Shown one piece after another: positions 7,480 to 32,639 of a stretch of DNA of 45,559 nt (within the stretch, counting starts at the first letter, position 1; each line of letters opens with the position of its first letter). A program made the position numbers and the translations under genes. The stretch comes from Patescibacteria group bacterium (GTDB lineage Bacteria; Patescibacteriota; Minisyncoccia; Minisyncoccales; JANBVM01). The stretch lies in the NCBI GenBank assembly GCA_024239015.1, contig JANBVM010000002.1, positions 8,204 through 53,762 on the forward strand, in the 5' to 3' direction. Under the pieces are notes generated by a model that had not been told where the DNA came from, did no database searches, and saw nothing but the letters and a program-made list of their open reading frames with translations.

Positions 7480-10400
7480 ATGAAACAAAAGGAAAGGAAT
7501 AAAAAAGAAATAAATACCATTAAAGAAAAATACGATCCTTATTTTCTTTTAGAACGTTTTATATTCAGGCAACGTGTTGAATTTATAAACCAAATAGAAA
7601 CAATTCCTAAAACTAATTATAAAGAAGTAGGAAGAGAATTACTTCTCCAAAATCTTTTTCTTAAAAAAATTAGACTTGATCCTGGGTTTCGGTTTAAAAT
7701 ATACGATGAATTAAATCAAAATAAGGGAATTTTAAGGAGAATAAAGAGAGAAATTATAAATTTTGTCCAAGAATCGGATTTATTTAAAAATTTCCAATCT
7801 CAGTCTAAAAAAATCGATAAGGATTTAGAGATTTATGAAATGAGATTTAGAATTCAAGACATCGGTGGCTATAATTATCCAAAAATTTTTACCTCGGCTC
7901 TCTTACCTACTAAAACTAAAAAAAGTTGGTTTCATCAAAAATGGAAAGCCTATATGGAAGCAGGGAAAAAACCAGAAGCTTATGCCGCTGAATCAATTCT
8001 TATGGAATTTATTACTGAATATCATCAGGGATATTATTTATTTTGGACAACAAATCCCTATGGTGAAAACCGAAACGCCTATCATTATTTATTAAACGCT
8101 ATAAGAGAAGTTGTTGAGAATATTAATCCATTCTTCTTGGATTATATAGATGCTCAAAGAAATAACATTTTATTATTTGAATCTATGCAAGATATCATTG
8201 ACAATTTAAATTTTCAGCTATTATTAAAGGATATTAATGAATATATTGAACACTTCCAAGATATTGTAAAAAGTGAAGCAGATTTATTAAATAAAGTAAA
8301 ATTAAGAAGATCTTTTTTTGTCATTGCAGGAATTCTTTATTTTAATTCCTTAAAAACCAAAATTAAGTTAAATTATTTAAATCGATTCTATGGTATTGAT
8401 TTTGTTATAGAATATTTTTTAAAAAATCCAGATTTTTATGATTATAATCAGTTTATAGGAGATTTACCAATTTGGTATAAATTTGGATTTCTTCCAGATT
8501 TTCAACCAATTCTAGAAATCAACTTAGAAAAATTTGAAAATGAAGTTAAGGTTAATTCAGCTAAAGGAAATATAAATGTACTACTTATTTTGACAAAATA
8601 TCTCTGTAAATCCTTAATTGAACAGAAGAAATATAATAAAGCATTACAAATATTGTTCGATAAATTTCCATTTCTTAATGATTGCAAAGAAGCATTTAAG
8701 AACTCTAAGGAAGTATTAATAAACCTAATAGATCCAAAATCCTGTGTTCAGATCGAAATTCTATTTTTATTGGCAAAAATGGGAGCAAAATCAAATAAGA
8801 ATGCAATTGTTAAATTTGTAATTAAAATTTACTATTTAATGCGGAATAGGGAGGACAATACCAATAATAAAATAAAATTTGAGATTTTAAGAAGTATTTT
8901 ATATCGATTAGTTAATGATTTCAATAATGAAAGAAAAATTATTAATAGCTTGAATGTTAACTTTAAGGAATTACTAAAAAACAAAGAAACTAATCCATTT
9001 GAAGTTGTTTTTTCATTATTTCCCCCTAATTTATTAACTTCAGAAGGCTTTCATTATGCAAAAAATAAACCTTTTATTCATGATTTTGAGTCCATCGAAA
9101 TATTTGAGAGAGAACCTTTGATACCTTTGAGTTTTGAAACGTATTTTATTTATGCTGATTATAGAAAAATAATTTTACAGAATAATGCAAATAACATTTT
9201 GGTATTTAATGAAAATTTCAGGGAGCTAAACAAATTATTAAATAGATGTCTTGAAGCACAGTCAATGGCAAGTTTTAACCAAGCAGTAAGATTAAGATCA
9301 GATATTGAAGAATCATCCTATCAAGAATATGAGAAGGAAAGATTGAAAATTATTTATGAAACACTTGCCTTTCCCTTTTTATATTTTAAAGAATATGGTT
9401 CTGCTATTTACTATCTAAATCTAGCACTAAAATTCAAGCCTGCTGATGCTTATTATAATAAATATTTAACAATTTTACATTTATTTCAAGAGGACTATGA
9501 GAAAGCTAGTAAAAATTTATTTAAGATATATCAAATTAGTGATCATTTTACTTATATGAGTGTTAATGCTAATATGAAGTCATTATTTCAGTATTTAATT
9601 ATTTGGTTTAAAAAAGATAAATTCAATAAATTAATTTTGAAAATGATTAGTGAACCTGAATATATTAAAAGCTTTGTAAAAAAACTTGATATTATTTATT
9701 GTGATGTTGGAGTATCTTTAGCAGATTTGGGTTATTTTGATGACGCTATTGAATATTTTAACAAGGCATTGGATATTACTCAGAATGATGATTTTAAGGC
9801 TTCTCTTTTGAATAACATTGGAACAGTTTATAGTGATACAATAAAACTTAATAATGCTATAGAAAAATTTGAATTGGCTCTTGAAATTAATCCCAATAAT
9901 CCAATATTTTGGAATAATTTAGCAAAAATGTACCAATTTAAATTGAATAATATAAAAGCAAAAGAGATTTTTCTAGAAGCAGAAAAACACTTCAAAGATA
10001 TAGATAAAAAAACTGCCGATATAATGTACGCTCATAGTTTAATAATGGATATGCATATAATGGGCATTATTAATTTAAATATCGTACATGAAAAAGACGC
10101 TTTATCACATTTTAAATTAGCTGGGCAACTTGTTAGAAATGTAAATAATTTAAATAACTTAACTGAAAATACAGGTATTATTTTTATAGAATTAACAAAT
10201 GGATTTGATTGTTGTTTTCACTCTACATTTTCTAAGAGTTTTTTAGATGTATTAATAAATGTGTATCCAAGTAAATCAAAAATTCCAGATGAGGACTGGA
10301 AAAAACTACCTTTAGGCTTAAGAGAACTATGGAAGGGAAATCATATGTCAATGGGTCATATATCTTTTTTAATTGATGAGCTATTAGATCCAAATTCAAA

Positions 10401-10620
10401 TAAACTTATTTTAGACTTAATAAATGCACTTCCAGGAAGTATTACTGAGAATGATCTCAGAACAATTCAAACATTTACATTGTTAACACGTCCAACGCGC
10501 AATCCTGGCAGTCATGGAGGAATACTAGATAAAACAATTTTTATTAATAATATTTCAAAAATAATAGAATCCATAAATAAAACTTTAATAGTTTTTGAGA
10601 AATTTTATTCTAATAAATAA
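7480..10620 (+). CDS. Large TPR-repeat protein with C-terminal HEPN-like (R-N-x3-H) putative RNase domain
   Basis: 1046 aa. Clear TPR units include YCDVGVSLADLGYFDDAIEYFNKALDITQND, LLNNIGTVYSDTIKLNNAIEKFELALEINPNNP and FWNNLAKMYQ. The C-terminus has LLTRPTRNPGSHGGILD, with R1007 to H1012 at nt 10498-10515. No Walker A is seen. Confidence 0.7.
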   Translation: MKQKERNKKEINTIKEKYDPYFLLERFIFRQRVEFINQIETIPKTNYKEVGRELLLQNLFLKKIRLDPGFRFKIYDELNQNKGILRRIKREIINFVQESDLFKNFQSQSKKIDKDLEIYEMRFRIQDIGGYNYPKIFTSALLPTKTKKSWFHQKWKAYMEAGKKPEAYAAESILMEFITEYHQGYYLFWTTNPYGENRNAYHYLLNAIREVVENINPFFLDYIDAQRNNILLFESMQDIIDNLNFQLLLKDINEYIEHFQDIVKSEADLLNKVKLRRSFFVIAGILYFNSLKTKIKLNYLNRFYGIDFVIEYFLKNPDFYDYNQFIGDLPIWYKFGFLPDFQPILEINLEKFENEVKVNSAKGNINVLLILTKYLCKSLIEQKKYNKALQILFDKFPFLNDCKEAFKNSKEVLINLIDPKSCVQIEILFLLAKMGAKSNKNAIVKFVIKIYYLMRNREDNTNNKIKFEILRSILYRLVNDFNNERKIINSLNVNFKELLKNKETNPFEVVFSLFPPNLLTSEGFHYAKNKPFIHDFESIEIFEREPLIPLSFETYFIYADYRKIILQNNANNILVFNENFRELNKLLNRCLEAQSMASFNQAVRLRSDIEESSYQEYEKERLKIIYETLAFPFLYFKEYGSAIYYLNLALKFKPADAYYNKYLTILHLFQEDYEKASKNLFKIYQISDHFTYMSVNANMKSLFQYLIIWFKKDKFNKLILKMISEPEYIKSFVKKLDIIYCDVGVSLADLGYFDDAIEYFNKALDITQNDDFKASLLNNIGTVYSDTIKLNNAIEKFELALEINPNNPIFWNNLAKMYQFKLNNIKAKEIFLEAEKHFKDIDKKTADIMYAHSLIMDMHIMGIINLNIVHEKDALSHFKLAGQLVRNVNNLNNLTENTGIIFIELTNGFDCCFHSTFSKSFLDVLINVYPSKSKIPDEDWKKLPLGLRELWKGNHMSMGHISFLIDELLDPNSNKLILDLINALPGSITENDLRTIQTFTLLTRPTRNPGSHGGILDKTIFINNISKIIESINKTLIVFEKFYSNK

Positions 10621-10912: not shown

Positions 10913-12013
10913 TTAAAGGATTAAATTTTTCAGGATATCGAGGCTTTCTAAATGATCAATAATTGCTTTATTTAGTTTAGTCGCTATCTTAAATTTTTCA
11001 TTTATAATGGCGCTTCTATCCGGGGCTATTTCGAAACCATATTTTGTTAAATAATGATGTTGAACCTTGAAAGAAATTAAAGTTAAATATTCCATTATAT
11101 TTCCTTCCGTTAAAGAATTGTTTTTGTTTGTAAACCAATCTTTATTTTCGTCTTTGCGATATACTTTAATTGGAGAATTAGGTTTTTTATAAAAAATCTT
11201 TCCATAATTTGAATCTCTACATATGAAAACTTGTTTATAATGATTTTCTGGACATAATTTTTGTATTTGTTCTTGGAAGATTGTGTTAAGAATGGGTTGA
11301 TAGATTTGGGTACATTCTTCATGATATTTAATTTCTATAACGGGATATTTTATATTTAATGTTCCAGGAACTACTACTTCAACATTTTGATCATATAATA
11401 AAAATCTTTTTCTTGGATAGGGTAATCCAAAACTCTTTGCTAAAAGAAAATCATCACATATGTTGAGAAACCCAAAATTATTTATAATTAAAAAGAAACT
11501 TAAAGGATAATGCATAAATGCTGGTAAACCTGTACCTCCAAAAAGTAAGTAATTTTTCCTTTTATTAATCTTATAAATCAAAAGCATTCTATCTTTAGTT
11601 TGTACACCCTGATTTATATAATATTTTGGTTGAATCCCAAGAAAATTATTACTATCATATAAGTTAGCTATATAAAGCCCAATTCTAATCTTATCAAACC
11701 AAGTCAATAATAAATTAAAATTTTTGTTTGATAGGGGTCTTTCACTTAAAATTCTTAATATAACATCCTTTGCATTACCCTCTAACTTAGAAAATTTGCT
11801 ATTACACATATTACAAGCAGGATATACAAAACTATCAAAAGTAAAGTCATTAAAATCAAGAATTAACTTATTACCTTTATCGAATTTATAATAAGGTCCA
11901 AAACGTAATATTTTGTTTTTTTGATTAGTAAGCTCAATTAACCATTCTGGTATAATGTGTTCTTTTGTTTTTTTTTTAGTAATCTTCCCACAGAATATAC
12001 ATATTTTTTTCAT
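10913..12013 (-). CDS. HNH-family nuclease-like protein with uncharacterised C-terminal domain
   Basis: The N-terminus is CIFCGKITKKKTKEHIIPEWL...YPACNMCNSKFSKLE, which gives CxxC...EH..P...CxxCN, an HNH/His-Me finger pattern. About 270 further residues have no recognisable motif. Confidence 0.6.
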   Translation of the reverse strand: MKKICIFCGKITKKKTKEHIIPEWLIELTNQKNKILRFGPYYKFDKGNKLILDFNDFTFDSFVYPACNMCNSKFSKLEGNAKDVILRILSERPLSNKNFNLLLTWFDKIRIGLYIANLYDSNNFLGIQPKYYINQGVQTKDRMLLIYKINKRKNYLLFGGTGLPAFMHYPLSFFLIINNFGFLNICDDFLLAKSFGLPYPRKRFLLYDQNVEVVVPGTLNIKYPVIEIKYHEECTQIYQPILNTIFQEQIQKLCPENHYKQVFICRDSNYGKIFYKKPNSPIKVYRKDENKDWFTNKNNSLTEGNIMEYLTLISFKVQHHYLTKYGFEIAPDRSAIINEKFKIATKLNKAIIDHLESLDILKNLIL

Positions 12014-13575: not shown

Positions 13576-15777
13576 TTAGGTCTCTATATTACAATCTCTT
13601 TTCCAGTCGCACCAAAATTTCTCTAACGCATCAAGCCCGTATTTACTAATAGACGAAAAATCATGAAAGAAATCAACTATGACTTTGTTTGGAATCTTGT
13701 CATATTTAGTAAAGACTTCAAATACTCGTTTATAGATATTAAGGAAACGCCAAAAGGTTTCTTCATCAAGTTTTTCGTGTTTCGTATGTTTTTGAACAGA
13801 TTTACATTCATATAGGTTATCCCCCTTAACCGAATCCCATTTTTCAGTAAAAGGGTCATAAATAAATAGCGAACCTATGGTATCGGCAGAAGTAATCTCG
13901 GCAATTTGAATTATCTTTCTCGCACTTGAATCAAAATCCTTTTTCATTAAGATTATCAAATCTAAATCATTAAAACAAGAGGGGTCGATTTTAAAGTGAT
14001 AGCGGAAACGATTTACTAACGATTCTATATTATCAGCATGAATAGTTTGAAAACCTCTCAACCCTGCTGATAAACAATGAAACAATGCTTCCGCTTCTTC
14101 TTTTTCTAATATTTCTCCTAGATAAATTGTGTCAGGAGACCGATGTAAAAGCTTTTTAATTTGATTACTTTTCGAATATTTAGGGTCTATATCGTCTTCT
14201 AAGGAATCAACCTTATATTTTAATTGATGTTTACCAAAATCTTCTTGATTTAACGATTCTATAGCATTTTCTATGTATATTTTTCTAAATTCTTTTGGCA
14301 ATAATAAGTCTAACGCATTGATTAAGGTAGTTTTTCCTGTATCAGTTTCTCCCGTTACAGTGATGTTATTCCTTCTTAAAATATTAAAATAAAGAAAGGA
14401 AGCGATTAAAGGATTCAATGTGTTATTCTGGAGTAAATCTTGAATGTTTAGAATGTTCTTGTTTAACTTTCGAATATCAAAAGAAAAACTTGAAGCGTGT
14501 ATTGGGGCAATATCTATCGTAAATCTACAAAAGAAATATTTATTTCTCATAGTAAATTTTATACTTGGATTAGCATAATCTAATCTCTCGCCGCTATAAA
14601 GCCTTATGAATGTTTTCAATCGCTCAATCTCATCAACTTTAAACTTAAGGTCTGTTCGACAACGACCATATGTTTGATGGTTAATGTAAATATAAGACTC
14701 TGAAGAATCTAAGAAAATTTCTTCAATCTTGTCATCAATTAAAAAGGGAAACAGTTTCGATAAGTTTATGGCTTCAAATGTAGCTAATAAACTAATTCTT
14801 TCTTGTTCACTCTTGGTGAGTTTGTATTTATCAGCAAGATAAGTTATCCCTTCATATAAGTATTTATCAATAAGTTCCTCAAATGTTAATATACTGTCTA
14901 ATTTGAAAGCCTCAATTAGAAATTCTCTAACATCCTTAGTAATCCCTCTAAAAAAACCCCTTTCCTCTTCTGTTTCATAGAGTAAGTTGACTTCGTACAG
15001 TTTTTCATAATCCCTCCCCATATCATACATGAGTATTTTGAATATATTATAATCTCCGATTTTATAGGAGTTAATCAACTTAGGTTTCTCTTTTTTAATC
15101 GCCGGTGTTTCTTTCTCCTCTGTCAATTTTGGAGTAGGGTCAGTTTTAATAGAATTGTTAAATAAAGCTTTGTAATACTCCAAGTATGTGTGAAAAACAT
15201 TATTTTTCTTACAAAAATTGCGATAATCTTTAATAATATTAAACTCGTTAATCATCACTAAGAATGCATTATATTCCTCTAACATCTCTTTTTTACAGTG
15301 AAAGCACCTAACATTGTTTATTTCATTTTTCTTGACAAGGTTATACCGCATCTGAACAATGTTGTAAAGCTCTATTGGGTTATTGTAATTAATCTTGGAA
15401 GGTCTAATCACCGAATAAAACTCGGAGAAAATGTCGCATTTCATACCATTTTTAATGCATTCCTGATTGAGTTCTAAATCAATAGGTTTGTAATAATTCT
15501 TGATATTCTTTATCTTCTTGAAATATTCCAAGAAAAAGTCATTTTTCTCTTTCCTCAAAGAATAAATGATATCAGTTTTTAATGAGAAAGAGTCAAATTT
15601 CTTTCGTTTAATCTTATATAACGAGTTTAAAAAGCATGATACACATCTCTTTGTTTTTAGAAAAGCTCCCGTATATTTCGGGCATTTCTTACAATCTATA
15701 AGAACTAAACGCTCCTTTTTACCATGAAAATTTTCCCTCTCTTGAAAAACAAGTAGATTATAATCTTTAACTGTCAT
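13576..15777 (-). CDS. VirB11/PilB/FlaI-family secretion ATPase with Cys-rich N-terminal extension
   Basis: Walker A is VTGETDTGKTTLINAL. The Asp-box-like segment is RKIYIENAIE. Walker B is PDTIYLGEILEKEEAEAL. The His box is GLRGFQTIHADN. The N-terminus carries CKKCPKYTGAFLKTKRCVSC. Confidence 0.85.
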   Translation of the reverse strand: MTVKDYNLLVFQERENFHGKKERLVLIDCKKCPKYTGAFLKTKRCVSCFLNSLYKIKRKKFDSFSLKTDIIYSLRKEKNDFFLEYFKKIKNIKNYYKPIDLELNQECIKNGMKCDIFSEFYSVIRPSKINYNNPIELYNIVQMRYNLVKKNEINNVRCFHCKKEMLEEYNAFLVMINEFNIIKDYRNFCKKNNVFHTYLEYYKALFNNSIKTDPTPKLTEEKETPAIKKEKPKLINSYKIGDYNIFKILMYDMGRDYEKLYEVNLLYETEEERGFFRGITKDVREFLIEAFKLDSILTFEELIDKYLYEGITYLADKYKLTKSEQERISLLATFEAINLSKLFPFLIDDKIEEIFLDSSESYIYINHQTYGRCRTDLKFKVDEIERLKTFIRLYSGERLDYANPSIKFTMRNKYFFCRFTIDIAPIHASSFSFDIRKLNKNILNIQDLLQNNTLNPLIASFLYFNILRRNNITVTGETDTGKTTLINALDLLLPKEFRKIYIENAIESLNQEDFGKHQLKYKVDSLEDDIDPKYSKSNQIKKLLHRSPDTIYLGEILEKEEAEALFHCLSAGLRGFQTIHADNIESLVNRFRYHFKIDPSCFNDLDLIILMKKDFDSSARKIIQIAEITSADTIGSLFIYDPFTEKWDSVKGDNLYECKSVQKHTKHEKLDEETFWRFLNIYKRVFEVFTKYDKIPNKVIVDFFHDFSSISKYGLDALEKFWCDWKRDCNIET

Positions 15778-15812
15778 CTCTAATATTTATTAACATAAAA
15801 ATTTAAAGTGCT

Positions 15813-16952
15813 CTAAGATTTGAACTCTCTTACATCAAATTGTAAAAAGGTATTATAATCGAGGATTCTTACATTTGGTAATTCTGTTAATTTCTTAACC
15901 TTAATCATTTCCGCATATTGAGAATCATCAATAATTAAGATATAGATGCTATATTTAGGATATATTTTGTCGAAAATCCTTGAAATTAGTTGGAAATCGA
16001 TTTCCTTAAAAATCATGAACATTAACTTGGATTCAATCAATATTGATTTTGGATTTAATCTATGAAACACAACTCCGTTCTCCTCTAAAGATTTTTCAAA
16101 TTCTATATTCACCTGATTAATGTCTATTTCCTTTTTTTTATATCGTGAAATTAATATTTCTTCCATATCTTTAAACAATAGGTAATGGTCGGAAATATCT
16201 AATCTCCACAAAACCTTATAAACATCATTTATTTCTAAGCTAAAAGGTTCTACTATATCATAATCAAAGAATCTATTAATTTCATATTCAAGATTAAATT
16301 CATCCTGAATGTCATGCTTTAATTCAATAAAGTATCCTGAAGTAACTATCAAATCTTCTGATTCCGACTTAAAATTAAAAACCAAATATCCTTCTATATT
16401 AAATTTTTTGATTAAATTGGTAAAATTGTATATAAAATTGTCTTTATTCTCTAATTCAGATAAATCTAAATTATAAATATCCAATAAACTAAAATCCCTC
16501 TCGTTTTCTATGATTATCGAATCAGTAGACTTTAACTTATGAACTTTTGAATCAAGAAAAGTAAACCCTATTTTAAAAAATTGATTTTCTAATTGCTTTT
16601 TTTCTAAAAATGAGAAAGGTAATAAATTCTTATTAGCCAAAATTTTTTTAAGGGAGTTAACCGTATCTAAAATTGTATTTATATCAAAATCAACCAAGCA
16701 TAGTATAAAATATTCCTCGATAGTTCTCGAAATTGAGATTTGAAATGTAAAATAACTAAGACTTCCCTTTTCTATTAATTCCTTCAGAACTGATAAAGTA
16801 TTAACTAAATCCGACACTTTAATTATAGAAAAGGCAACAACTTTCTTTACTTTATTGAGACTTGGGAAAAAAATTAGTTCTTTATCAACCGAATAAGATT
16901 TGAGCTTAAATTTTCCTTTTTTTACTGTAGCACACATATCAGTCACTCTCAT
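15813..16952 (-). CDS. Hypothetical protein (member of the ATPase/membrane cluster)
   Basis: 379-aa ORF tightly packed between the 98-aa membrane protein and the secretion ATPase. No recognisable motif. Confidence 0.6.
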   Translation of the reverse strand: MRVTDMCATVKKGKFKLKSYSVDKELIFFPSLNKVKKVVAFSIIKVSDLVNTLSVLKELIEKGSLSYFTFQISISRTIEEYFILCLVDFDINTILDTVNSLKKILANKNLLPFSFLEKKQLENQFFKIGFTFLDSKVHKLKSTDSIIIENERDFSLLDIYNLDLSELENKDNFIYNFTNLIKKFNIEGYLVFNFKSESEDLIVTSGYFIELKHDIQDEFNLEYEINRFFDYDIVEPFSLEINDVYKVLWRLDISDHYLLFKDMEEILISRYKKKEIDINQVNIEFEKSLEENGVVFHRLNPKSILIESKLMFMIFKEIDFQLISRIFDKIYPKYSIYILIIDDSQYAEMIKVKKLTELPNVRILDYNTFLQFDVREFKS

Positions 16953-16959
16953 TTAATAT

Positions 16960-17256
16960 TTAGGCAAAAAAACATAGATAAACCAACATAGTAAATAAAT
17001 ACATACCTACAAAGACATATATCATTGTAGAGAAGTAGAACAGAGAATTAAAGAATAATAAATTTTGTAGATTAAGAGAATATAATATTGTTTTTAACAA
17101 ATTCATTATATAAAGAAAAGGCAATAAGAATAAAAGATAAATCCCAAAAGAGTAGAAGACTATGATTAAATCTGTAGCTATAGCATTATACATAAATAAA
17201 ACCACAAACAAACCGAGTATTCCAAACATTTCAATGAGGTGTACTTGCAATCTCAT
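16960..17256 (-). CDS. Small integral membrane protein (about 3 TM helices)
   Basis: 98 aa, almost entirely hydrophobic (GILGLFVVLFMYNAIATDLIIVFYSFGIYLLFLLPFLYIM..., FYFSTMIYVFVGMYLFTMLVYLCFF). Its start overlaps the end of the upstream gene by 26 nt. Confidence 0.6.
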   Translation of the reverse strand: MRLQVHLIEMFGILGLFVVLFMYNAIATDLIIVFYSFGIYLLFLLPFLYIMNLLKTILYSLNLQNLLFFNSLFYFSTMIYVFVGMYLFTMLVYLCFFA

Positions 17257-17995
17257 ATAACCTTCTTATTATTTTAGATATAATTTCAAAAAGCATACAT
17301 GCCGATTCTCCTATTTTATGAGTCTTTACCCTCAAATGTCGCCTATATTCATCGAGCTCTTCATAAAACTGAAATCGAAGACCCCTTTCATGCACTTGTA
17401 GTAGAAAATCGTCGACCGAACTATAACCAATATTCAGATATTTGGCTAACCTTGATAAAAAATAATTGAAAAAATTATTACATTGAGTAATGACTTCCGA
17501 GTAATAACCTGAATTGTATGTATATTGAATTTCATCGTACCAATCAGCTAATTTATCTAACTCCATGTTTGGCTTTTGATTATTATTGGGTTGATATGTT
17601 AGTCTATTCTTTTGAGGTATCATTCTCACATTTGGGTTCTGGTTCTCAAGAACATTAGGGGGATAAGCATTCGGTAATTGTCTATTCTGAGCAATTTCCC
17701 CAAGTTGTTTCTGATGTTTGCCCCCCACATCAAAATTCTCAATATGCTCAATGTTTTTAATATTAATGTTATAATTATCAGGATGAGAATATTTTCTCTT
17801 TAATCGCTCTTTTCTGTGTTTTCTATATGATTTAACTGCCTTTTTAATACCCCTTTTTGTGTCCTTTTTTGCTCTTTTTACTATTGGTTTAAATGTGTGT
17901 TTGTACCAAGGGTCAAAACGATTATTCTTCCAATTAGAAAAATCCTCTTTTTTATCCCTTATCTTTTCCGATATTCTTTTCTTCTCATATTCCAT
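17231..17995 (-). CDS. Hypothetical protein: basic N-terminus, N/Q/P-rich linker, helical C-terminal domain
   Basis: 254 aa. The N-terminus is K/R-rich. The linker reads QNPNVRMIPQKNRLTYQPNNNQKPN. The C-terminal helical bundle (YYSEVITQCNNFFNYFLSRLAKYL ... EYRRHLRVKTHKIGES) is only speculatively HEPN/DUF4145-like. Confidence 0.55.
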   Translation of the reverse strand: MEYEKKRISEKIRDKKEDFSNWKNNRFDPWYKHTFKPIVKRAKKDTKRGIKKAVKSYRKHRKERLKRKYSHPDNYNINIKNIEHIENFDVGGKHQKQLGEIAQNRQLPNAYPPNVLENQNPNVRMIPQKNRLTYQPNNNQKPNMELDKLADWYDEIQYTYNSGYYSEVITQCNNFFNYFLSRLAKYLNIGYSSVDDFLLQVHERGLRFQFYEELDEYRRHLRVKTHKIGESACMLFEIISKIIRRLYEIASTPH

Positions 17996-18014
17996 GATAT
18001 TTACCTTTTTTAAT

Positions 18015-18413
18015 TTAATTTTCTACAATTATATCAAATTGACCGTAGAAAGCTTTAAAGAAATCTGACAATAAAGCTTGTGCGTTCTTTAAATCATTAT
18101 CTACTTTCTCTTTAAGGACATCGTTGACTAATATCAAGATTAATTCGAGGTTTCCAATTGTTAGGCAAGGGCTTTTATTAAACTCTTTTTTCTCTTTGAA
18201 AATCTTATACAGATAATGAATGAGTTTCAGAACCTCTTTCTCACAGCTCCTTTGGATTCTTTCATTGAGTAATCCCCAATAATTAATATAAATGAGTTCA
18301 AGAGCAATAACAAGATTTTGATAATCTCTTTCTTTGAATATCGGAATCTCAAATTTTTTTGAATTATCATATACTTTTGTCATATTGCACCACCTAACTC
18401 CGATAATACACAT
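18015..18413 (-). CDS. Hypothetical protein
   Basis: 132-aa ORF that overlaps the upstream gene by 20 nt, consistent with operon packing. Confidence 0.55.
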   Translation of the reverse strand: MCIIGVRWCNMTKVYDNSKKFEIPIFKERDYQNLVIALELIYINYWGLLNERIQRSCEKEVLKLIHYLYKIFKEKKEFNKSPCLTIGNLELILILVNDVLKEKVDNDLKNAQALLSDFFKAFYGQFDIIVEN

Positions 18414-19122
18414 CCTCTATATTTTTATGTCGCCTATATTTCTTATTCATTATTTCTCGTGCTAATTCCTCATCTGATTTCATTAGTATGTCTTTGTTAA
18501 GCAATTTCTTCTTAATTTCCTTAATATCTTTTTTAACACCCCTTAAGCCAGAAGATTTAGCAGATTTCCCTCTCCTTCCTTTTTTCCCGCGCTTTCCTCG
18601 TTTTCCTCTCTTTGGTTTATCATTTTTGTTCTCCTTGTTTTTCATTTTATCCCTTTTGGATTTCTTATCATCTTCCTCTTTTGGTTTTTCTTCTTCAATT
18701 TTTTCCCTTCTTTCTTCTATCTCACGGAAATTCTCTTTTTCTTTTAGAAGAATATTACTGTAATTCTCGTAATCGTTTTTTTCTTCGGCATCTGGTAAAT
18801 CACGATTTTCTTCTAATCCCGTATCTTCCAAGGAATCTTCTTTGTCATATGGCTCATAAGTATTTTCAGCTTCCAACATATCTAATGAATGTTTTTCGTC
18901 TAACGGCACATATTTTTCAGATTTTATATCGTTTTCATTGTCAGATTCTTTATCAAATAAAGAATCATCGGGATCCTCATCCTTATCATTATCTAACTCG
19001 AATGAATCATCGTCATTAATACTATCATCAAAATTTTCTTCCAAATCAGTCAAGTGATAATCCATCTTTTGGTTTAGTTTCTTTAAATTTTCTGATATAA
19101 ATAAAAGGTAACCCACATTCAA
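18394..19122 (-). CDS. Polyampholyte protein: highly acidic N-terminal half, lysine/arginine-rich C-terminal half
   Basis: D/E-rich stretches (DDSINDDDSFELDNDKDEDPDDSLFDKESDNEND) are followed by KPKRGKRGKRGKKGRRGKSAKSSG. Confidence 0.6.
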   Translation of the reverse strand: MNVGYLLFISENLKKLNQKMDYHLTDLEENFDDSINDDDSFELDNDKDEDPDDSLFDKESDNENDIKSEKYVPLDEKHSLDMLEAENTYEPYDKEDSLEDTGLEENRDLPDAEEKNDYENYSNILLKEKENFREIEERREKIEEEKPKEEDDKKSKRDKMKNKENKNDKPKRGKRGKRGKKGRRGKSAKSSGLRGVKKDIKEIKKKLLNKDILMKSDEELAREIMNKKYRRHKNIEDVYYRS

Positions 19123-19137
19123 GACATTTTGATTTTG

Positions 19138-21798
19138 TTATTCTATATCACCTCTTAATTTATTTGGTAACTGGTCTCGATTTTCTTGAAAAAAATCCTT
19201 AAAACTTAATTCTCTCTTAGGTATATTCTCAATCCTATAATCCTCAGTTCTAAAGAGATATGAATCTGAACCCCTTTTTAGCATACAAATTCGCTCATCT
19301 AACCGAGAGATTAATTCTTGTTCTTTCAAGTCATTAGTGAAGTGTTGAGCACTCTTTAAGGATTGGTTAAATAGGAAAAACAAGCATGGAATATTAATAG
19401 CGGAGTCATATAGTCCCTCAGCGGTCTGGTCTGCTAAAAATAAACAAGTTCCTTTAGAACGGAACTCCCTGATGAACACGGAAAAGATTTTTCGGAATGA
19501 ATCCATGGCGATAAAATCATCATCATCAGGATTAACATTTTCGGGTTTCGATGTTAATTGATGTGCTTCATCTAAAACGATAATTCTTTTTAAATTTTCT
19601 TCCTCTCTGTCTGGAATTAATGTTCTAAACATCTGCAATATCAATGTTGATAATAAACGCTTTTCTGGAGCACTACATCCAGATAAATCCAACATGACTT
19701 TCTTACCATTAAATAACACATCTTTCACCCATAGAGGAATTTTATCCCTTACTCTTAAACCACTTATTATATCCGAATTGGTGAAGAGCGTAGTGAATCT
19801 ATGTTTAATGGCTTGAACTATTCTCATTTGAAGTCTTGCATCATAAGGATTCTTTTCTAAATATCGCAAAAGCTCACTGAATAAATGGTTAATATGATCT
19901 GGTACTCGTAATTTATTAGTATAAAAAGTTGTTAAAGTATTATTTAAGGCATTAACAACGACATTTTTTAAACCAACCGAATAAACCAGACATTCTGAAA
20001 TTTCGTTTAAACACCGTTGAAAGTTATCATTAAAAACAGCATAAGGAACTTGGAGTCTTTTATCCCCCCATTTTAAGCAATAATCGGAAGGGTATAATTT
20101 CTTTTGGGCCCCTTTAGCAAGGTTAATAATCAATACTCCAATTTTGGGGCTATGTTTCTTAATATGTCTCAGAATGTTTGCTATTAAGTAAGTTTTCCCC
20201 ATTTCAGGTTTTCCAACAAGTAATAGTGAACTCCTTAATGATTTAATTGGGATAATTGCTTTTTTTTCAGAGATTACACCATCTAATAGATGGTTTCCAA
20301 TAATAATTTCTGAAGAATCTCCCTTGGGAATCCTTCTTAAGTTAAAACTCTGAGTTTCGTAAATAAATCTTTTTTGGACGGGTAATTCTTTAGCAAGGTC
20401 AAAATCAAGCAAATATGATGTTAAAAATTGCCCAGAAAAAAAGTTTGATTTATAAAAATCAACAATAACGCCTTTGCGAACTTTTTTCAATTTTGCGGGC
20501 TTTTTCTCATTTCTCCCGGCTATTGCAATATTATCGATTATTCCTTCAATCATATTTTTTCTTGCTTTTTCTATGTGATTTAACTTAAAACTAACGAAAA
20601 TTCTGACTCGAAATAAATCATCTTGCCACAATCTTGAGAGCTGTGATCTCTCTTCCTCATCCCTATACTCTAATATTTCAGCTTCTTCTTTTATCTTAAC
20701 CATCCTTTTTCGATAGACTTTCTTCCAAACAACATATAGGTTTATATCTTCTGCTGTAGTTTTGAAAGCACTAATAAAACTCTGAATTACTTTGATTTTA
20801 TCCAAGAACGGCGGTTTTGGAAGCTTAATTTCATAAAAATTATTATGTTTTACATCATAAAGCTCATTTCGAGTTATCGGTTTTATTTCAATATCAACAT
20901 CTAACCCTCGATATTGTGTTTGTAGCTGTGCTTTAAGAGTTTGCCCCTTTCTGATCGCTAATTTCTCAGAGGGAGACTTTAACACGAATGAAAACTTAAA
21001 GTCATTGTGACATCGAATCTCTATTCCATAAGTATCATTTGTTCCTAGTAAATCCTTTATCCAAGTACCGTAATAATCGTAGTTAAACCTTTTATTTTCA
21101 ACATTATGCTCTAACGCTAATTGAATGATTGTGAGTTTTGTTTGCCAAAAAAGGATTTTTCTTGAACGAATATCCTTCGGTAATACACCAAAAATACTTA
21201 ATTGAAGACTATGGACATAAGATACCAATAATCGATAACAATATTCATAGGAAACAAGGTTTAGGATCGACATTAAGATAATTGAACAGACTGCGAGAGT
21301 TAAGAAATCATAAAGATATGCAGAATAAAATAGAATTGCAGTAATGATAAAAGATATCAAAATCCTAATAAACAGTTCAATATTCGGGTTAAAAATAACA
21401 AGAAAAGATATAAATAGTAGTATCATGGTAATAGAATTTAAAAAAAGCTCTCCACTGATACCTAAAACAGTTATATGTGAGAGTAAAGTGATAACCATCA
21501 ATGAATTACTGCTCACATTTCTCTTTCTCTTATAATTTCTCAGGTAAAAATCGCTAATTAAGAGAATTAATATCAAAATCCCTTCTAAATAGAAAAACAA
21601 TTTTATTTCTGGGTTACTATAATCTGAGATACGGTTTCCCATGATTGTGAAAATTATAATGAGTGTAAAAAATATTATCAGCGAAAAAGGGTTCTTTTTG
21701 TTATCCCTTGCTAATAAAGAGTTAGAAATTACAATAGATAGGATAATTACCATAGCATACCCGATTGTATTTAAGGAAAAGAGCGACATATCAGTCAA
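19138..21798 (-). CDS. Membrane-anchored FtsK/HerA/VirB4-superfamily P-loop ATPase (about 7 N-terminal TM helices)
   Basis: Residues 1 to about 215 are polytopic hydrophobic. Walker A is LLLVGKPEMGKTYLIANIL. Walker B is RIIVLDEAHQL. The downstream GTCLFLADQTAEGLYDSAI is a typical motif of DUF87/VirB4/TraG-like ATPases. Confidence 0.85.
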   Translation of the reverse strand: MTDMSLFSLNTIGYAMVIILSIVISNSLLARDNKKNPFSLIIFFTLIIIFTIMGNRISDYSNPEIKLFFYLEGILILILLISDFYLRNYKRKRNVSSNSLMVITLLSHITVLGISGELFLNSITMILLFISFLVIFNPNIELFIRILISFIITAILFYSAYLYDFLTLAVCSIILMSILNLVSYEYCYRLLVSYVHSLQLSIFGVLPKDIRSRKILFWQTKLTIIQLALEHNVENKRFNYDYYGTWIKDLLGTNDTYGIEIRCHNDFKFSFVLKSPSEKLAIRKGQTLKAQLQTQYRGLDVDIEIKPITRNELYDVKHNNFYEIKLPKPPFLDKIKVIQSFISAFKTTAEDINLYVVWKKVYRKRMVKIKEEAEILEYRDEEERSQLSRLWQDDLFRVRIFVSFKLNHIEKARKNMIEGIIDNIAIAGRNEKKPAKLKKVRKGVIVDFYKSNFFSGQFLTSYLLDFDLAKELPVQKRFIYETQSFNLRRIPKGDSSEIIIGNHLLDGVISEKKAIIPIKSLRSSLLLVGKPEMGKTYLIANILRHIKKHSPKIGVLIINLAKGAQKKLYPSDYCLKWGDKRLQVPYAVFNDNFQRCLNEISECLVYSVGLKNVVVNALNNTLTTFYTNKLRVPDHINHLFSELLRYLEKNPYDARLQMRIVQAIKHRFTTLFTNSDIISGLRVRDKIPLWVKDVLFNGKKVMLDLSGCSAPEKRLLSTLILQMFRTLIPDREEENLKRIIVLDEAHQLTSKPENVNPDDDDFIAMDSFRKIFSVFIREFRSKGTCLFLADQTAEGLYDSAINIPCLFFLFNQSLKSAQHFTNDLKEQELISRLDERICMLKRGSDSYLFRTEDYRIENIPKRELSFKDFFQENRDQLPNKLRGDIE

Positions 21799-23502: not shown

Positions 23503-24909
23503 ATGAGTGAAGGAAATAACGAAACGATAGATCATGAGGAAATTAAGATTTTTCAGAAATTCATTCATTTTTCGCAATTGTTAGATCCAAAGATAGAAAC
23601 TATTTCTTTATCAGAAAGTAAATATATTGCTAAAATTTATTTCAAAGAATCTAGGAAACTCTGTTTCTCCTATGAATATGAGGGTAGAGAGGAAAAAAAA
23701 ATCTGGATTTATCGAAATATAAAAATTGAGGAAGAGAATGACACTCTTATGAGAAAACTTTACTTGCTTGAGCTCTTTTTTACAATTCCTTTGAGATTCG
23801 ATATTCGAACTATCAAAATACAAAATTTTCCAATTAATAAAAATGATATGATGGAATATTTGGATGAATATAATAAATCATATCAAAAAAGATTAGTCCC
23901 TCAAAAAGAAATATTTTCATCTGATAATAAGTCTCTCCAGTCGGGCGTTTATCAAATTACAATTGTCAGAAAAAATCATTATATACCTCAAGGATATTTA
24001 AGGAAGTTCGAATGTGAAAGTAAGCCTGGCTATATATATAATTTTAAATTAATTGAAGCAAAATTCGAAGAGTCTTCTGGAGTTGATCCCGTGAAAATTG
24101 AAAATATCTTACATATCAAACATTTCTATTCTTTAGGTATGGAATTAATACTAAAAAACATAGAGGATGCTTTTTACACTATTAGGAATAAAATTATATC
24201 GGATAATAGTCTTAAAAGGATTGTTTATGAAGAAAAAATATCCATTGTGAGATATATATTTGCACAATACCTTAGAACTCCTCTAGAAAGAAATAGATTT
24301 GTCAATCAAGCAAGAATTATGTTAGAAAGCCTCTATTCTAACCGAGTTAATCAAAAAATCAATAAAGATGAGATTTATATTGAATTTAATGACTTATATA
24401 TTCGGTTAATGCTTGAAGGTGGAATATATCAATTTTTATTTCCCTCACCAAAAGAGACACGACAAGTAGAACTAATTAACTTTTACTTAAAGAATAAATG
24501 GAAATTGATATCAGCTGGAAATATGAAGTTTAACACTTCTGATAATCCGATTATTATGCATAACGATTGTTATGAGCCGATTATTGATCAAGATTATATT
24601 GACACTCTAAAAACCCCCAATTCCAAAATCTTTGGAACAAAAAGACCACATGGTTTAATGGAACCCGGTATTCAGTTATATTTTCCAATCACACCCAAGC
24701 TCTGTATTCTCATTTATAATCCACAATTTGGCCAAAGATTATTAAAACCCGTTGAAATAAATGAGCAGGGTCTAATCCAATGTTATCAAAATATATTATC
24801 ATCCAATAATAAGATCAGAAACTTTTTGAAGAGAAAATTAAATCAAAAGAGAAAAAAAAGAGAAAAATTTGTTGAACTCCATTTAAATGTTAAAATTGAA
24901 GAATTTTAA
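23503..24909 (+). CDS. DUF4238-like protein with about 155-aa N-terminal extension
   Basis: KNHYIPQGYLRKFE matches the H-Y-[IV]-P-Q-x-Y-L-x-x-F opening motif as I recall it for DUF4238. Later FNTSDNPIIMH and LYFPITPKLCILIY are also reminiscent of that family. Confidence 0.55.
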   Translation: MSEGNNETIDHEEIKIFQKFIHFSQLLDPKIETISLSESKYIAKIYFKESRKLCFSYEYEGREEKKIWIYRNIKIEEENDTLMRKLYLLELFFTIPLRFDIRTIKIQNFPINKNDMMEYLDEYNKSYQKRLVPQKEIFSSDNKSLQSGVYQITIVRKNHYIPQGYLRKFECESKPGYIYNFKLIEAKFEESSGVDPVKIENILHIKHFYSLGMELILKNIEDAFYTIRNKIISDNSLKRIVYEEKISIVRYIFAQYLRTPLERNRFVNQARIMLESLYSNRVNQKINKDEIYIEFNDLYIRLMLEGGIYQFLFPSPKETRQVELINFYLKNKWKLISAGNMKFNTSDNPIIMHNDCYEPIIDQDYIDTLKTPNSKIFGTKRPHGLMEPGIQLYFPITPKLCILIYNPQFGQRLLKPVEINEQGLIQCYQNILSSNNKIRNFLKRKLNQKRKKREKFVELHLNVKIEEF

Positions 24910-25052: not shown

Positions 25053-26090
25053 CTACTCTTTATAAAAAATTGGTTTTAATAGATTAACATAATGGTCTCT
25101 AATCGAATATTCGGCAATTTTCGTGGCCTCAGATATGACGGATTGGGTTAGAACTGCTTTTGTTCCAAATTCTTTAGCTACTAATTTATCGGCTAAATAT
25201 ATTGTAGCACCCGCCAATATAAATGGATGCCTTCCCCCTCTTTGCCATTGTGTTAAATTTTTTAAAACAATTCTGCAAGTCTTAGTCAGTTTACATAAAT
25301 ATTCTTGTTTTGTCCAAAGGGATTTTTTCTTTTTCAGTCTCTCTTCTATGCACTTATGGTTGATTACCTCACTTAATAGTCTGGTAAGGTAATCTTCACT
25401 TTTATGATGGGCAGTTTCCTTATGTATAAGATGTCTATATCGCATTCCATCTCTAAGAATTAATCGAGGGTTGACTCTATGACCTAATTCCTGAAAAGTC
25501 TTTGAAAGCTCACGAATCGTGATCGGTGCGTTATGATATTCCTTCCTTATAGCATAAAAGATGCTAAAAGCAATTAGAGAAATATTATTTATAATTTTTT
25601 CTCCACTATTAATTATTTTTTGAAAATAATAAGCACTATTATTCCGGATATTACTATTTAGATTTAGAGCAAGAGCAACCTTATTGAGAATATTAAAAAC
25701 TCTGTATTCTGTTTCTCTCCCCTTTATTCTTGATAACTGGTCGTAATTTTTCTTTAATCTTCTAAAGAGTTTTTGCCCATTTGGGCGTAAAAGCTTCCCA
25801 CATTTATCTTTTATATATTTTGTGTTTTCATAGTCCATAAATGTACCTAATCCCCCCACGAAATCAGGCCGCTTACCTAATGCAACAAATTGCTTAGACA
25901 AACCATCTTTTATTTCTGAATTGTTGTGAATGAAGGAAGATTTTTTATATGTAGGGTTAATAACTAACCCACAATCCCTACAAATCAATTCAAACCCATT
26001 ATTCCATATTTTTCCTTTACATTCAGGGCATAAACCATCATCTTCTTTACCTTCAATTTCAATATTAATTACAGTTATGATTATTTTCAC
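25053..26090 (-). CDS. tfb: Transcription initiation factor B (TFB/TFIIB homolog), GTG start
   Basis: The N-terminal Zn-ribbon is CPECKGKIWNNGFELICRDCGLVI. Two cyclin-fold repeats follow (RVFNILNKVALALNL...SLIAFSIFYAIR; FILAGATIYLADKL...ISEATKIAEYSIRDHY). Confidence 0.9.
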   Translation of the reverse strand: MKIIITVINIEIEGKEDDGLCPECKGKIWNNGFELICRDCGLVINPTYKKSSFIHNNSEIKDGLSKQFVALGKRPDFVGGLGTFMDYENTKYIKDKCGKLLRPNGQKLFRRLKKNYDQLSRIKGRETEYRVFNILNKVALALNLNSNIRNNSAYYFQKIINSGEKIINNISLIAFSIFYAIRKEYHNAPITIRELSKTFQELGHRVNPRLILRDGMRYRHLIHKETAHHKSEDYLTRLLSEVINHKCIEERLKKKKSLWTKQEYLCKLTKTCRIVLKNLTQWQRGGRHPFILAGATIYLADKLVAKEFGTKAVLTQSVISEATKIAEYSIRDHYVNLLKPIFYKE

Positions 26091-26221
26091 CTATCTGAGA
26101 TATAATTATATGATGTTTGTATGATATTCATTATAGTATCATATTATAAAAAAAATATATAAAGATAACCAAATTAGAGAAGGAGAGACCTAATTAGAAG
26201 TAAAAAAAGGAAGAAATAAAA

Positions 26222-26383
26222 TTAGTGCGGGGCTTTATTCTTATTCACAGTTTCTTCTTTCAATTTCTCAATTGAATTTAAAATTTTTTTATAATATTGC
26301 TCATAGGTAGAATCATCAGGAAAAATTTCAATGAGTTTTTTATATCGGGATTTTAATAACTTCAAGTCTCCTAAAATATTCAT
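26222..26383 (-). CDS. Small hypothetical protein (53 aa, below the ORF-track cutoff)
   Basis: My translation is MNILGDLKLLKSRYKKLIEIFPDDSTYEQYYKKILNSIEKLKEETVNKNKAPH*. It shares an RY..L[IV]..FP[DN]D..Y[EQ]..Y motif with 34946-35221. Confidence 0.3.
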   Translation of the reverse strand: MNILGDLKLLKSRYKKLIEIFPDDSTYEQYYKKILNSIEKLKEETVNKNKAPH

Positions 26384-26711
26384 GATGTAGTTTACATCTC
26401 CCCAACATTAAATTTAGTGTAGGAGTACACCAAAAGATAAAAATCCAATGTGATTAAAGAATAATAAACTCCTGTATTGTTTATCAGGGGGTGATTATAA
26501 CAATGAAAAAGTATGAGAAATGTTCTCTTATTTCTCCTGTAATTTTGGGATTTGTGAAACACCATCAAATTTCTATTTTTCATATCTTTTTACCCCCATT
26601 CGGACACAATTTTTATGCTGATAATATGATATGTATATGAAAATCTCCCTCCTAATTTTCGTCTAATGTGCCTTCATTTTTAATATTGTTGTATTTAAAA
26701 TGAACCCCAAT

Positions 26712-26996
26712 TTATATTTCCAATTGTCTAAGCTTCCGACTCATTAATTTTCTATTTAATATTCTCTGAAATTCATTCTGAGAATGTTCTAATTTAGCAA
26801 AAAACTCATCAAGCTTATTAAAATTGTTAAAGAAATTTGTCTCCCCATTAACAGTTATGTCAACCCCCTTGGGGTCAAATTTAATCTTCGCATAAATCCC
26901 CCCATTATGTGGGTCGTGTCGGATAAAAGTGAGATAATCTGCTTTCTTTTTAGCCCAAAATTGTTTTTTTAACAAATAATTTCGATACATACTCAA
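26712..26996 (-). CDS. Hypothetical protein
   Basis: 94-aa ORF with no recognisable motif. Confidence 0.45.
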   Translation of the reverse strand: MSMYRNYLLKKQFWAKKKADYLTFIRHDPHNGGIYAKIKFDPKGVDITVNGETNFFNNFNKLDEFFAKLEHSQNEFQRILNRKLMSRKLRQLEI

Positions 26997-27231
26997 AATT
27001 TTTACCCTCTTTTTTTATTTACTTAAATTTTCTTTTTTAACTGGGTTTAATGTTGAAGGTTAAAAGTACTTCCCCCGAAACGCATATTGAAATACTATAA
27101 AAGCCAATAGCTTTGTTTATAGAATCCAAGTAAAAGAATTTGCTTTAAGAATTTATATACCATTTCAACAAACAATTCCTCAGCGAATTTCATGAAGCCA
27201 TTTAACATTCTTTATTAAATCTTTAATGATG

Positions 27232-29127: not shown

Positions 29128-29223
29128 TGAAAAACAGTGTTTTGGGATTAAAATTCATGAATAACTTATTAATAGGATATGGTATTTAATATATTAGTAA
29201 TGAAATATTGAGGAATCATATAG

Positions 29224-32604: not shown

Positions 32605-32639
32605 CGCAGAATAACTTATTTCATGGGGTGATTTCCTAA

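Follow-up and report, generated by a model that had tools for sequence, protein, structure and literature searches.

Archaeal type IV filament systems include the archaellum, with its FlaI/ArlI ATPase and FlaJ, and PilB-PilC pili such as Ups and Aap; the ATPase GspE2 (2OAP) belongs to the same group. In the crenarchaeal Ced and Ted systems (CedA, CedA1, CedA2, CedB), an ATPase of the HerA/VirB4 superfamily and polytopic and tiny membrane proteins are combined with a type IV pilus system, the Ups pili. The module at the core of the pT26-2 plasmid family of Thermococcales and Methanococcales contains a HerA/VirB4/B204-like ATPase together with many transmembrane (TM) proteins and has been put forward as a device for DNA transfer or secretion (PMC6972569). 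Knowledge of the mobile elements of Asgard archaea, and of mechanisms of horizontal transfer among them, is scant. A 2024 survey noted that, until then, plasmids and integrative and conjugative elements were undescribed for this group (PMC11529989). The 2016 census of archaeal type IV pili predates Asgard genomes. Here we analyzed a 45,559-nt stretch of DNA (contig JANBVM010000002.1, hereafter the window) that carries a cluster of seven genes, g1 to g7, which an initial annotation had read as a type IV secretion system (T4SS)- or Ced-like apparatus on a mobile element. The window is an island of ~45-47 kb in an Asgard (Promethearchaeota, Loki-type) chromosome.

The cluster had been described as co-directional, tightly spaced and partly overlapping, and all seven genes do lie on the minus strand; two gene pairs overlap, by 20 and 26 nt, and the other neighbours are 15, 19, 7 and 35 nt apart. 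The first gene, g1 (19138-21798), encodes 886 aa with ~7 predicted N-terminal TM helices (residues ~1-200), a central alpha/beta region that is conserved (~204-500) and a P-loop ATPase of the HerA clade, so the early description of a membrane domain fused to an ATPase also held. It is followed by g2 (18394-19122; 242 aa), whose N-terminal half is acidic and which also has a basic (KRG)n tract and, at its C-terminus, a conserved helix, as expected from its earlier description as an acidic/basic polyampholyte; g3 (18015-18413; 132 aa), with no function assigned and kept in the related contigs L001 and L035; and g4 (17231-17995; 254 aa), with a basic, Trp-rich N-terminus. The 98-aa product of g5 (16960-17256) is, as had been noted, nearly all hydrophobic, a small membrane protein with ~3 TM segments. 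The fold of g6 (15813-16952; 379 aa), which is linked to a FlaI/PilB-like ATPase, is unassigned, and g7 (13576-15777; 733 aa) is an ATPase of the FlaI/PilB/GspE class with a T2SSE domain at residues ~340-660.

All seven genes occur in the same order in the Logan/NCBI contigs L001, L002 and L004 at 36-62% amino acid identity, and six of the seven are kept in the ENA contig L003 at 35-53%, so that the gene order is common to three diverged elements, the window and two independent relatives. GC content is 25-32% throughout the window, and the cluster open reading frames (ORFs) lie in ~29% GC DNA. Because ORFs of 733-886 codons persist at 29% GC and their order is conserved, we consider g1-g7 to be real genes and not chance ORFs. 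No tRNA or Rfam feature was found in the window, and a bacterial-type promoter and terminator scan, a type unsuited to archaea, gave no enrichment.

We favor, at a probability of roughly 0.55, the reading that two membrane-associated ATPase modules, each evolving separately, have been fused into this cluster inside the Asgard island: module A (g1-g4), built around a membrane HerA-type ATPase, and module B (g5-g7), a paralogue of a pilus-type gene set. Islands L035 and L044 have island-type Cdc6, HTH_5, 102-aa, 170-aa and TrmB-like genes 47-69% identical to those of the window; both contain an island-type g7, and L044 also contains g6-like and platform-like genes (the platform is the putative membrane partner of g7 described below), and neither has the HerA module. 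Conversely, no T2SSE ATPase lies within 10 kb of the membrane-fused HerA gene (TM-HerA) in L005, L006 or L009. Since L035 and L044 carry g7 without HerA, and L005, L006 and L009 carry HerA without a nearby T2SSE, g1-g4 and g5-g7 form two distinct modules, which are united only in the branch made up of the window, its relative YT1_007 and L003. In the metagenome-assembled genome (MAG) LW40_45, the TM-HerA module (L009) and a core filament/Cdc6 locus (L036) lie ~26 kb apart on one 84-kb contig. The replication and platform block, from the TFB-like gene to a 154-aa gene (window 25053-34075, compared with L001:1654-9509), is inverted relative to g1-g7 in L001, a 61%-identical relative.

The motor of module A is, by its motifs and profile matches, a membrane-anchored ATPase of the HerA clade and not of the VirB4 type. 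The motifs quoted in the initial annotation are present: Walker A, GKPEMGKT, at residues 529-536, Walker B, VLDEAH, at 741-746, and FLADQT at 787-792, which includes ADQ at 789-791. In the family alignment G529, G534, K535, D743 and E744 are invariant and R780 is near-invariant, a pattern that fits a HerA-type active site; Walker A, the DEAH-type Walker B, the 'FRSKG' arginine region and 'ADQ' all align with HerA chains. A 59-member profile searched against PDB matched HerA (8xau, 5e-8; 8wiv, 2e-7; 4d2i, 5e-6), with alignments spanning both motif regions, and the packaging ATPase STIV B204 (1e-6). It also matched YjgR and DptH and, weakly, IcmO/DotL (E 0.009), and VirB4 and TrwK chains were absent among the 60 PDB matches listed, which include every match at E ≤ 0.23. 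Pfam DUF87 was found in 24 of the 59 family members (g1 itself not among them) and FtsK_SpoIIIE in one, and no VirB4 or TraC family was found in any of them. The early assignment of g1 to the FtsK-HerA superfamily was thus right, and its assignment to the VirB4 type was not, the closest solved relatives being HerA and STIV B204.

Close relatives of g1 are rare: a word-indexed search found two among 5.8 billion proteins, and an exhaustive profile search gave 187 family representatives, 65 of them at E<1e-30. Among 60 full-length representatives, 45 are soluble proteins of ~650 aa and 13 have at least three N-terminal TM helices. Of 26 genomic loci that were confirmed, 17 carry the label Promethearchaeota or Promethearchaeia and 8 that of 'uncultured archaeon', while one, a weak match, comes from a Bacteroidales MAG; the family is essentially Asgard-restricted. 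The TM domain of g1 had no Pfam match, in a class of proteins for which sequence methods are weak, and an AlphaFold2 model from a three-sequence alignment was unusable (pLDDT 38). In having an N-terminal polytopic anchor followed by a C-terminal motor of the FtsK-HerA superfamily, g1 resembles the FtsK/SpoIIIE/TraB pumps; it differs from them in that it belongs to the HerA clade and lacks a gamma-domain, and FtsK_SpoIIIE is rare in its family. It differs from described HerA-clade ATPases in its ~7-TM domain and family-specific central domain, in the lack of a NurA, Sir2 or nuclease partner, and in the partners that it does have, which are bipartite acidic/(KRG)n, basic Trp-rich and 207-aa membrane proteins. 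The pT26-2 core module is alike in that an integrated or episomal archaeal element pairs a HerA/VirB4/B204-like ATPase with TM proteins; it differs in that there is no sequence relationship, in that pT26-2 has an integrase and neither a FlaI-type ATPase nor Cdc6, and in its Euryarchaeota hosts.

The partners of g1 recur with it. A g2-type gene always lies immediately downstream of the membrane-fused HerA gene, with loci at window 18394-19122, L001:12526-13221, L003:3063-3707 and L009:12510-13196. Orthologues of g2 are present in L001 and L003; the 228-aa protein of L009 has the architecture and position of g2, with a sequence match to g2 that is only marginal, and L005 has an analogous acidic protein. 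In g2 itself, [FY]xP[LY]D motifs in the acidic half are accompanied by the basic (KRG)n tract KRGKRGKRGKKGRRGK, and the g2-type proteins as a group have a conserved Lys/Arg-Gly tract, KRGKRGKRGRRGK, after a poly-acidic region of 100-150 residues with [FY]xP[LY]D. This bipartite charge suggests nucleic-acid binding or mimicry. The product of g3 is 36% identical in L001 and 55% identical in L035, where its gene is directly upstream of g7, and g4 co-occurs with TM-HerA in L001, L003 and L009. A further recurrent partner is the 207-aa membrane protein encoded at 32640-33263 on the plus strand, with 4-5 predicted TM segments; its homologues, ~205-aa proteins with 4 TM segments, accompany the TM-fused HerA forms, near the TM-HerA genes of L001, L006, L009 and L028. 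We considered this protein as an A24 prepilin peptidase and rejected it, as it has no GxGD motif and no Pfam match. The ORFs of ~505-518 aa upstream of other TM-HerA genes were likewise rejected as platform homologues, being unrelated (FAD-oxidase-like, TPR and others).

The soluble and membrane-fused forms of the g1 family differ in setting. Soluble paralogues of ~650 aa (L007:9923-11938; also L008, L014, L015, L018, L022 and L023) lie in a conserved core context of TruD-like, Pth2-like, 170-aa, 306-aa, thermosome and repetitive GIY-YIG-like (~600-690 aa) genes followed by the HerA-like gene; these neighbour identities were read from the sequences without a Pfam run, and NurA was not evident among them. 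The TM-fused relatives in L005, L006 and L009 sit in variable, nuclease-rich regions, and the nucleases around TM-HerA loci other than that of the window are Shedu-like, LAGLIDADG, PD-(D/E)XK and HNH.

These neighbours raise the question of whether g1-g4 are a HerA-based defence or conflict system, comparable to the Sir2-HerA, DUF4297-HerA or MADS-type systems, that merely lies beside spare pilus genes and is not part of one machine. The best solved relatives of g1 include anti-phage HerA proteins (8xau, 8wiv, 8j4u, 9c1m), PADLOC reported mad8 at 1e-12 together with weak HerA matches, the island encodes a DUF4238 protein and its relatives encode HEPN and GmrSD domains or a ResIII-caspase fusion, and the HerA module is missing from islands L035 and L044. 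However, the PADLOC matches are limited to the generic P-loop region, and there is no effector (nuclease, Sir2 or protease) within g1-g4; neither NurA nor a nuclease nor a Sir2 domain was found in g2-g6 or in adjacent genes. The 7-TM anchor, like the 207-aa membrane protein that accompanies it, is indicative of a process at the membrane, and the tight gaps and overlaps with g5-g7, in an order kept in three diverged elements, speak against mere neighbourhood. We regard a defence system as unlikely, while taking it seriously.

The ATPase of module B is, from profile and motif comparison, a FlaI/PilB/GspE-class enzyme and a member of a pan-Asgard family. It matched Pfam T2SSE (PF00437) at 3.7e-15, above the cut-off, and the first NCBIfam match was archaellum FlaI (2e-29). 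Against PDB it matched Archaeoglobus fulgidus GspE2 (2oap, 7e-27) and FlaI (4ii7, 2e-21), in both cases over ~350 residues, ahead of CpaF (1e-9) and VirB11 (1e-5). The Walker A, Walker B and His boxes are intact and invariant in 20 island and core sequences, and so are eight Cys residues within the first 160 residues of the ~300-aa N-terminal region, which are predicted to form two Zn-binding modules (precomputed Pfam PF27713). The family comprises more than 418 proteins at E<1e-30; each is ~715-733 aa long and aligns end to end, and submitters annotated them as T2SS, type IV pilus or TadA-type ATPases in Loki-, Thor-, Odin-, Hod- and Hermod-archaeota. In a crude neighbour-joining tree the island g7 ATPases form their own clade, with 42-49% identity to the core types, which are 50-69% identical to each other. 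The initial annotation's 'VirB11/FlaI-type' ATPase with a Cys-rich N-terminus therefore stands as to the FlaI class and the cysteines, not as to VirB11, and the idea that a VirB11-class ATPase had been added to the cluster fails: g7 is one of a family of ~720-aa FlaI/PilB-like ATPases across Asgard classes, whose cognate genes lie partly outside the cluster.

Those cognate genes include the most conserved gene of the island, which encodes a 504-aa polytopic membrane protein (30800-32314, plus strand; 70% identity in L001 and 65% in L003), the putative membrane partner, or platform, of g7. Its distant homologues, at 37-43% identity, were found on six independent contigs in one conserved chromosomal neighbourhood, which we call the core locus (L030, L032, L033/L034, L036 and L045; for example L036:6572-21703). 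There the order is ABCE1, LysRS, GHMP kinase, a g6-like gene (367-389 aa), L23-L4-L3, a ~720-730-aa T2SSE ATPase, a prepilin-like gene (137-145 aa), the 506-520-aa membrane protein, a g5-like gene (99 aa), three small genes, a gene for an A24 prepilin peptidase (annotated in L030, L032 and L036), HTH_5, Cdc6/Orc1, S17e and a TFB-like gene. The homologue of the 504-aa protein is thus two genes downstream of the ATPase. Reciprocal searches between window and core locus gave identities of 35-40% for g5, 31-35% for g6, 46-48% for g7, 39-43% for the 504-aa protein, 55-60% for HTH_5, 41-44% for Cdc6 and 65-67% for the TFB-like gene. Because divergence is uneven among the genes (65% for TFB-like, ~42% for Cdc6), paralogy is favored over a uniformly deep orthologous locus. 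The pan-Asgard core locus appears to be absent from the literature examined, and its membrane partner is not recognisably T2SSF.

Since the window holds diverged counterparts of these filament-like genes, g5-g7 are, as far as such comparisons can tell, a second, diverged set of Asgard type-IV-filament-like genes and not T4SS parts. The paralogue of g5 is the 99-aa gene right after the 506-aa membrane-protein gene of the core locus. There was no Pfam match for g5 and no PDB match at E ≤ 10 for its family profile, in another class of small membrane proteins for which sequence methods are weak; no CedA1, TedC, VirB2 or other solved pilin chain was matched, the presence of CedA1 and TedC chains in the PDB copy being assumed. 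The earlier suggestion that g5 is a VirB2/CedA1-type pilin was therefore not borne out. In islands g6 adjoins the FlaI/PilB-like ATPase, from which it is separated in the core locus by L23-L4-L3; profile searches found no Pfam or PDB relatives of its family. A 55-aa prepilin-like ORF at 32437-32604 (plus strand), conserved in L001, has a class III signal-like N-terminus, MGSLIEKG|LLIAFAIFIFF, and the core 137-145-aa protein starts MTNLLEKS|LITGFGIF; the two share the motif M-x-x-L-[IL]-E-K-[GS]|L-[LI]-x-x-F-[GA]-I-F followed by a hydrophobic helix. The 55-aa ORF looks like a truncated homologue of the core pilin-like protein, with predicted signal cleavage. A tblastn search with the core-locus peptidase found no A24 prepilin peptidase in the window, so an island filament set would depend on a host peptidase.

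Module B resembles the archaeal type IV filament systems in the alignment and intact motifs of g7, and in that a prepilin-like gene, a polytopic membrane protein and an A24 peptidase lie beside the ATPase in the core locus. It differs from them in the N-terminal extension of g7 with its invariant cysteines, in having a membrane partner without detectable T2SSF similarity, a pilin-like ORF of only 55 aa and no peptidase, and in that the island ATPase gene lies apart from its partner genes, in an operon with the HerA module. The 504-aa protein is a helical, polytopic protein in which two soluble bundles of helices lie between TM hairpins; in its AlphaFold2 model (pLDDT 68) this repeat of hairpin and bundle is suggestive, but Foldseek gave no PDB match.

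With both modules described, the reading with which this work began can be weighed: that the cluster is a T4SS, Ced or Ted apparatus in which g1 is VirB4 or CedB fused to a CedA/VirB6-like domain, g5 a VirB2/CedA1-like pilin and g7 VirB11. Membership of g1 in the FtsK-HerA superfamily, to which VirB4 and CedB also belong, the presence of a polytopic membrane domain and a tiny hydrophobic protein, the IcmO/DotL match of g1 and the weak VirB11 matches of g7 all agree with it. Yet HerA and B204 score at 5e-8 to 1e-6 where no VirB4 or TrwK appears among the matches listed and no VirB4/TraC Pfam family is found; g7 is far closer to FlaI and GspE2 and is a paralogue of a core gene beside a prepilin-like gene and an A24 peptidase; and g5 is a core-locus paralogue that matches no CedA1, TedC or VirB2. 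No relaxase or VirD4-type coupling protein domain was found in any window ORF of at least 90 aa, in agreement with the initial annotation, which had recognized no relaxase. The likeness to Ced/Ted alongside Ups pili is one of functional logic only, as no sequence evidence ties g1, g5 or the TM domain to CedB, CedA1 or CedA, and in the present cluster the ATPase and the membrane domain form a single protein, encoded in one operon with a pilus-type ATPase. We consider such an apparatus very improbable, and the T4SS/Ced label for the cluster should be dropped. The general idea of an island-borne membrane/ATPase apparatus survives. The initial annotation had set two findings beforehand as speaking against its own proposal, and each was seen in part: the affinities of g1 are with HerA and packaging enzymes, and counterparts of g5-g7 exist in a core chromosomal context.

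How might the two modules work? In module B, a g7 hexamer would presumably act with the 504-aa membrane protein and the truncated 55-aa prepilin-like subunit, both encoded 15-17 kb away; together with g6 and g5 these could assemble a short filament or pseudopilus, processed by the host peptidase. In module A, g1 would be a hexameric motor at the membrane, anchored by its ~7 TM helices and working with g2 and two small partners. The single most likely function, which we put forward tentatively and at well under even odds, is that the modules cooperate, as a cell-surface filament or pseudopilus and a nucleic-acid translocase in the membrane, to carry DNA of the element from cell to cell. The logic would be that of Ups pili with Ced in Sulfolobus. 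The bacterial competence system (ComG with ComEC/ComFA) is similar by analogy, in that a pseudopilus ATPase is paired with a membrane translocase; it differs in its ComEC-like channel, for which no counterpart was found here. A more specific version, in which the island family is a self-transmissible Asgard element that combines a captured host filament paralogue (g5-g7, the 504-aa protein and the 55-aa mini-pilin) with, in one operon, a membrane-embedded HerA-type DNA pump (g1) and a DNA-binding or DNA-mimicking adaptor (g2), we consider doubtful.

Several observations weigh against the two-module fusion or against its functional extension. The modules are joined in only one island sub-branch, so functional coupling is not required. 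The nuclease neighbours of TM-HerA loci suit a role in defence or conflict equally as well as one in transfer, and the role of g1 as a DNA pump is conjectural. On the filament side, no pilin fold was verified, and the pilin-like family profile matched no solved pilin. The 504-aa protein had no T2SSF Pfam match at E ≤ 10, its AlphaFold2 model gave nothing below E 0.7 in a Foldseek search of PDB, and hhalign of its family against genuine T2SSF proteins (Haloferax PilC-like, Salipiger TadB/TadC) gave no signal. A search for core locus and island together in one genome, which paralogy would predict, gave no direct instance. As for the element itself, no convincing origin recognition box (ORB) or other origin repeat was found near Cdc6, a search for attachment (att) repeats across a reconstructed 59.9-kb segment gave only AT-rich matches of ≤18 nt, no integrase was substantiated in the window, and island GC equals flank GC.

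The window corresponds to ~17,636-63,194 of a 98.9-kb scaffold, and on either side of it are genes typical of Asgard hosts, among them GTPases (Arf/Ras/Roc and RagA-like), Roadblock/LC7, MFS, PAS and a histidine kinase paired with a response regulator. The ~45-47 kb between them are almost devoid of recognisable housekeeping genes. The YT1_007 relative lies mid-position in a 197-kb contig. The island has its own lineage of replication initiator, a Cdc6/Orc1 gene (27540-28796, minus strand) that overlaps an HTH_5 winged helix-turn-helix gene (27232-27543, minus strand); this Cdc6 is 53-60% identical to those of other islands, compared with 41-44% to the core-locus Cdc6. A TFIIB/TFB-like gene (25053-26090, minus strand) lies nearby, and backbone genes at 29224-30514, encoding 102 aa (plus strand), 170 aa (minus strand) and a TrmB/MarR-like protein of 91 aa (minus strand), are common to L001, L035 and L044.

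These features must also be set against the possibility that the region is not mobile at all, being a lineage-specific duplicated or rearranged part of the chromosome, possibly with a secondary origin, that encodes an ordinary adhesive filament and a housekeeping membrane HerA. The origin-proximal core locus contains counterparts of eight island genes, GC matches the flanks and neither integrase nor att sites were found; TM-HerA is ~26 kb from the core locus in LW40_45, and soluble g1 paralogues are in a core context beside the thermosome gene. Against this, ~45 kb are almost without housekeeping genes and include TnpB, the distribution is patchy (g1 having only the two close relatives noted above), cargo is variable, a module is inverted between relatives, and the island-specific Cdc6 and g7 clades cut across host labels. 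We judge a non-mobile region to be rather improbable. Mobility of the island is plausible, and unproven because there is no integrase, att repeat, relaxase or origin repeat and GC equals that of the flanks. What stands of the initial annotation's mobile element is an island that is flanked by host genes and has a Cdc6 lineage of its own. Its remark that no recombinase is recognisable applies to the cluster and not to the window, which holds a TnpB gene at 689-1918. A 415-aa ORF at 4173-5420 was tried as an integrase and gave a sub-threshold, unsubstantiated SAM-like match.

A provirus of a new type was also considered, with g1 as a packaging or extrusion ATPase like STIV B204 or PRD1 P9, g7 as an extrusion ATPase, and g5 and the 55-aa protein as capsid or coat. 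The g1 profile does match B204 at 1e-6, small two- or three-helix hydrophobic proteins resemble spindle-virus capsid proteins, as in wyrdviruses (10.1101/2021.07.29.453957), and Cdc6 and TFB genes are known in archaeal viruses and enigmatic Asgard mobile elements. However, no capsid, portal or terminase domain was found in the window, PHROGs gave only generic P-loop matches, for g7, and g5, g6 and g7, together with the membrane partner and the pilin-like gene, are paralogous to core genes of the host. Scans of IMG/VR (with g1, g7 and the 504-aa protein) and of JGI metagenomes found no relatives of the island genes. We give a provirus very little credence, the least of any reading considered.

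In the papers that we read on Asgard mobile elements we found neither this island family nor the TM-HerA module described. The analysis delineates a family of Asgard chromosomal islands with its own Orc1/Cdc6 lineage and a private pilus-type assembly set, and an essentially Asgard-restricted HerA-like ATPase family that has soluble forms in core settings, membrane-fused forms in islands, and partners that are both conserved and unusual; a pan-Asgard FlaI/PilB-like locus adjoining a Cdc6 gene is a by-product. If the modules cooperate in DNA transfer, they would provide a new path for gene flow in the lineage of archaea nearest to eukaryotes. If the island were self-transmissible, this would be a conjugation-like apparatus independent of VirB4-type T4SS and of Ced, and the first candidate DNA-transfer machinery in that lineage. 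If the modules do not cooperate, the cluster remains instructive, as an instance in which genes for host surface machinery were duplicated onto an island.

Several further observations were made in the islands and their relatives. TFB-like genes are present in several copies per island (L037:18289-19097; L035:7385-8714; window 25053-26090), some of them apparently split or pseudogenised. They are 59-73% identical to the core-locus copies, and their divergence is far lower than that of the Cdc6 and ATPase genes next to them, which suggests that sequence was recently exchanged with the host copy. A single G/C-rich palindrome, GGGGCTAAAAACCCCCCCC, lies at 28866-28885 in a very AT-rich intergenic region of 427 bp upstream of Cdc6, with no ORB-like repeats alongside. 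Beside TM-HerA in MAG LW40_45, a gene at L009:16116-17642 (minus strand) encodes a 508-aa fusion of a complete TFIIB (Zn ribbon and two cyclin repeats, 3e-36) with a C-terminal Arf-family GTPase (3e-9).

The intact TnpB gene (689-1918, minus strand) has OrfB_IS605 and Cas12f-like TNB domains. A second TnpB-like gene (35235-36755, minus strand), split into ORFs of 268 and 237 aa (HTH_OrfB_IS605), is probably a frameshifted copy; TnpA was not seen. The DUF4238 protein is encoded between the ATPase cluster and the Cdc6 block in two diverged islands (window 23503-24909, plus strand; L044:17338-18522). Conflict-type cargo in island-type contigs consists of HEPN and GmrSD in L035 and a 909-aa ResIII-DEAD-Peptidase_C14 (caspase-like) fusion in L044. 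The remaining cargo of the window includes a 1046-aa TPR protein (7480-10620, plus strand), a 366-aa protein with a weak N-terminal HNH-like Cys motif (10913-12013, minus strand) and a 409-aa secreted or membrane-anchored protein of the peptidase-C45/AAT family (42832-44061, plus strand).

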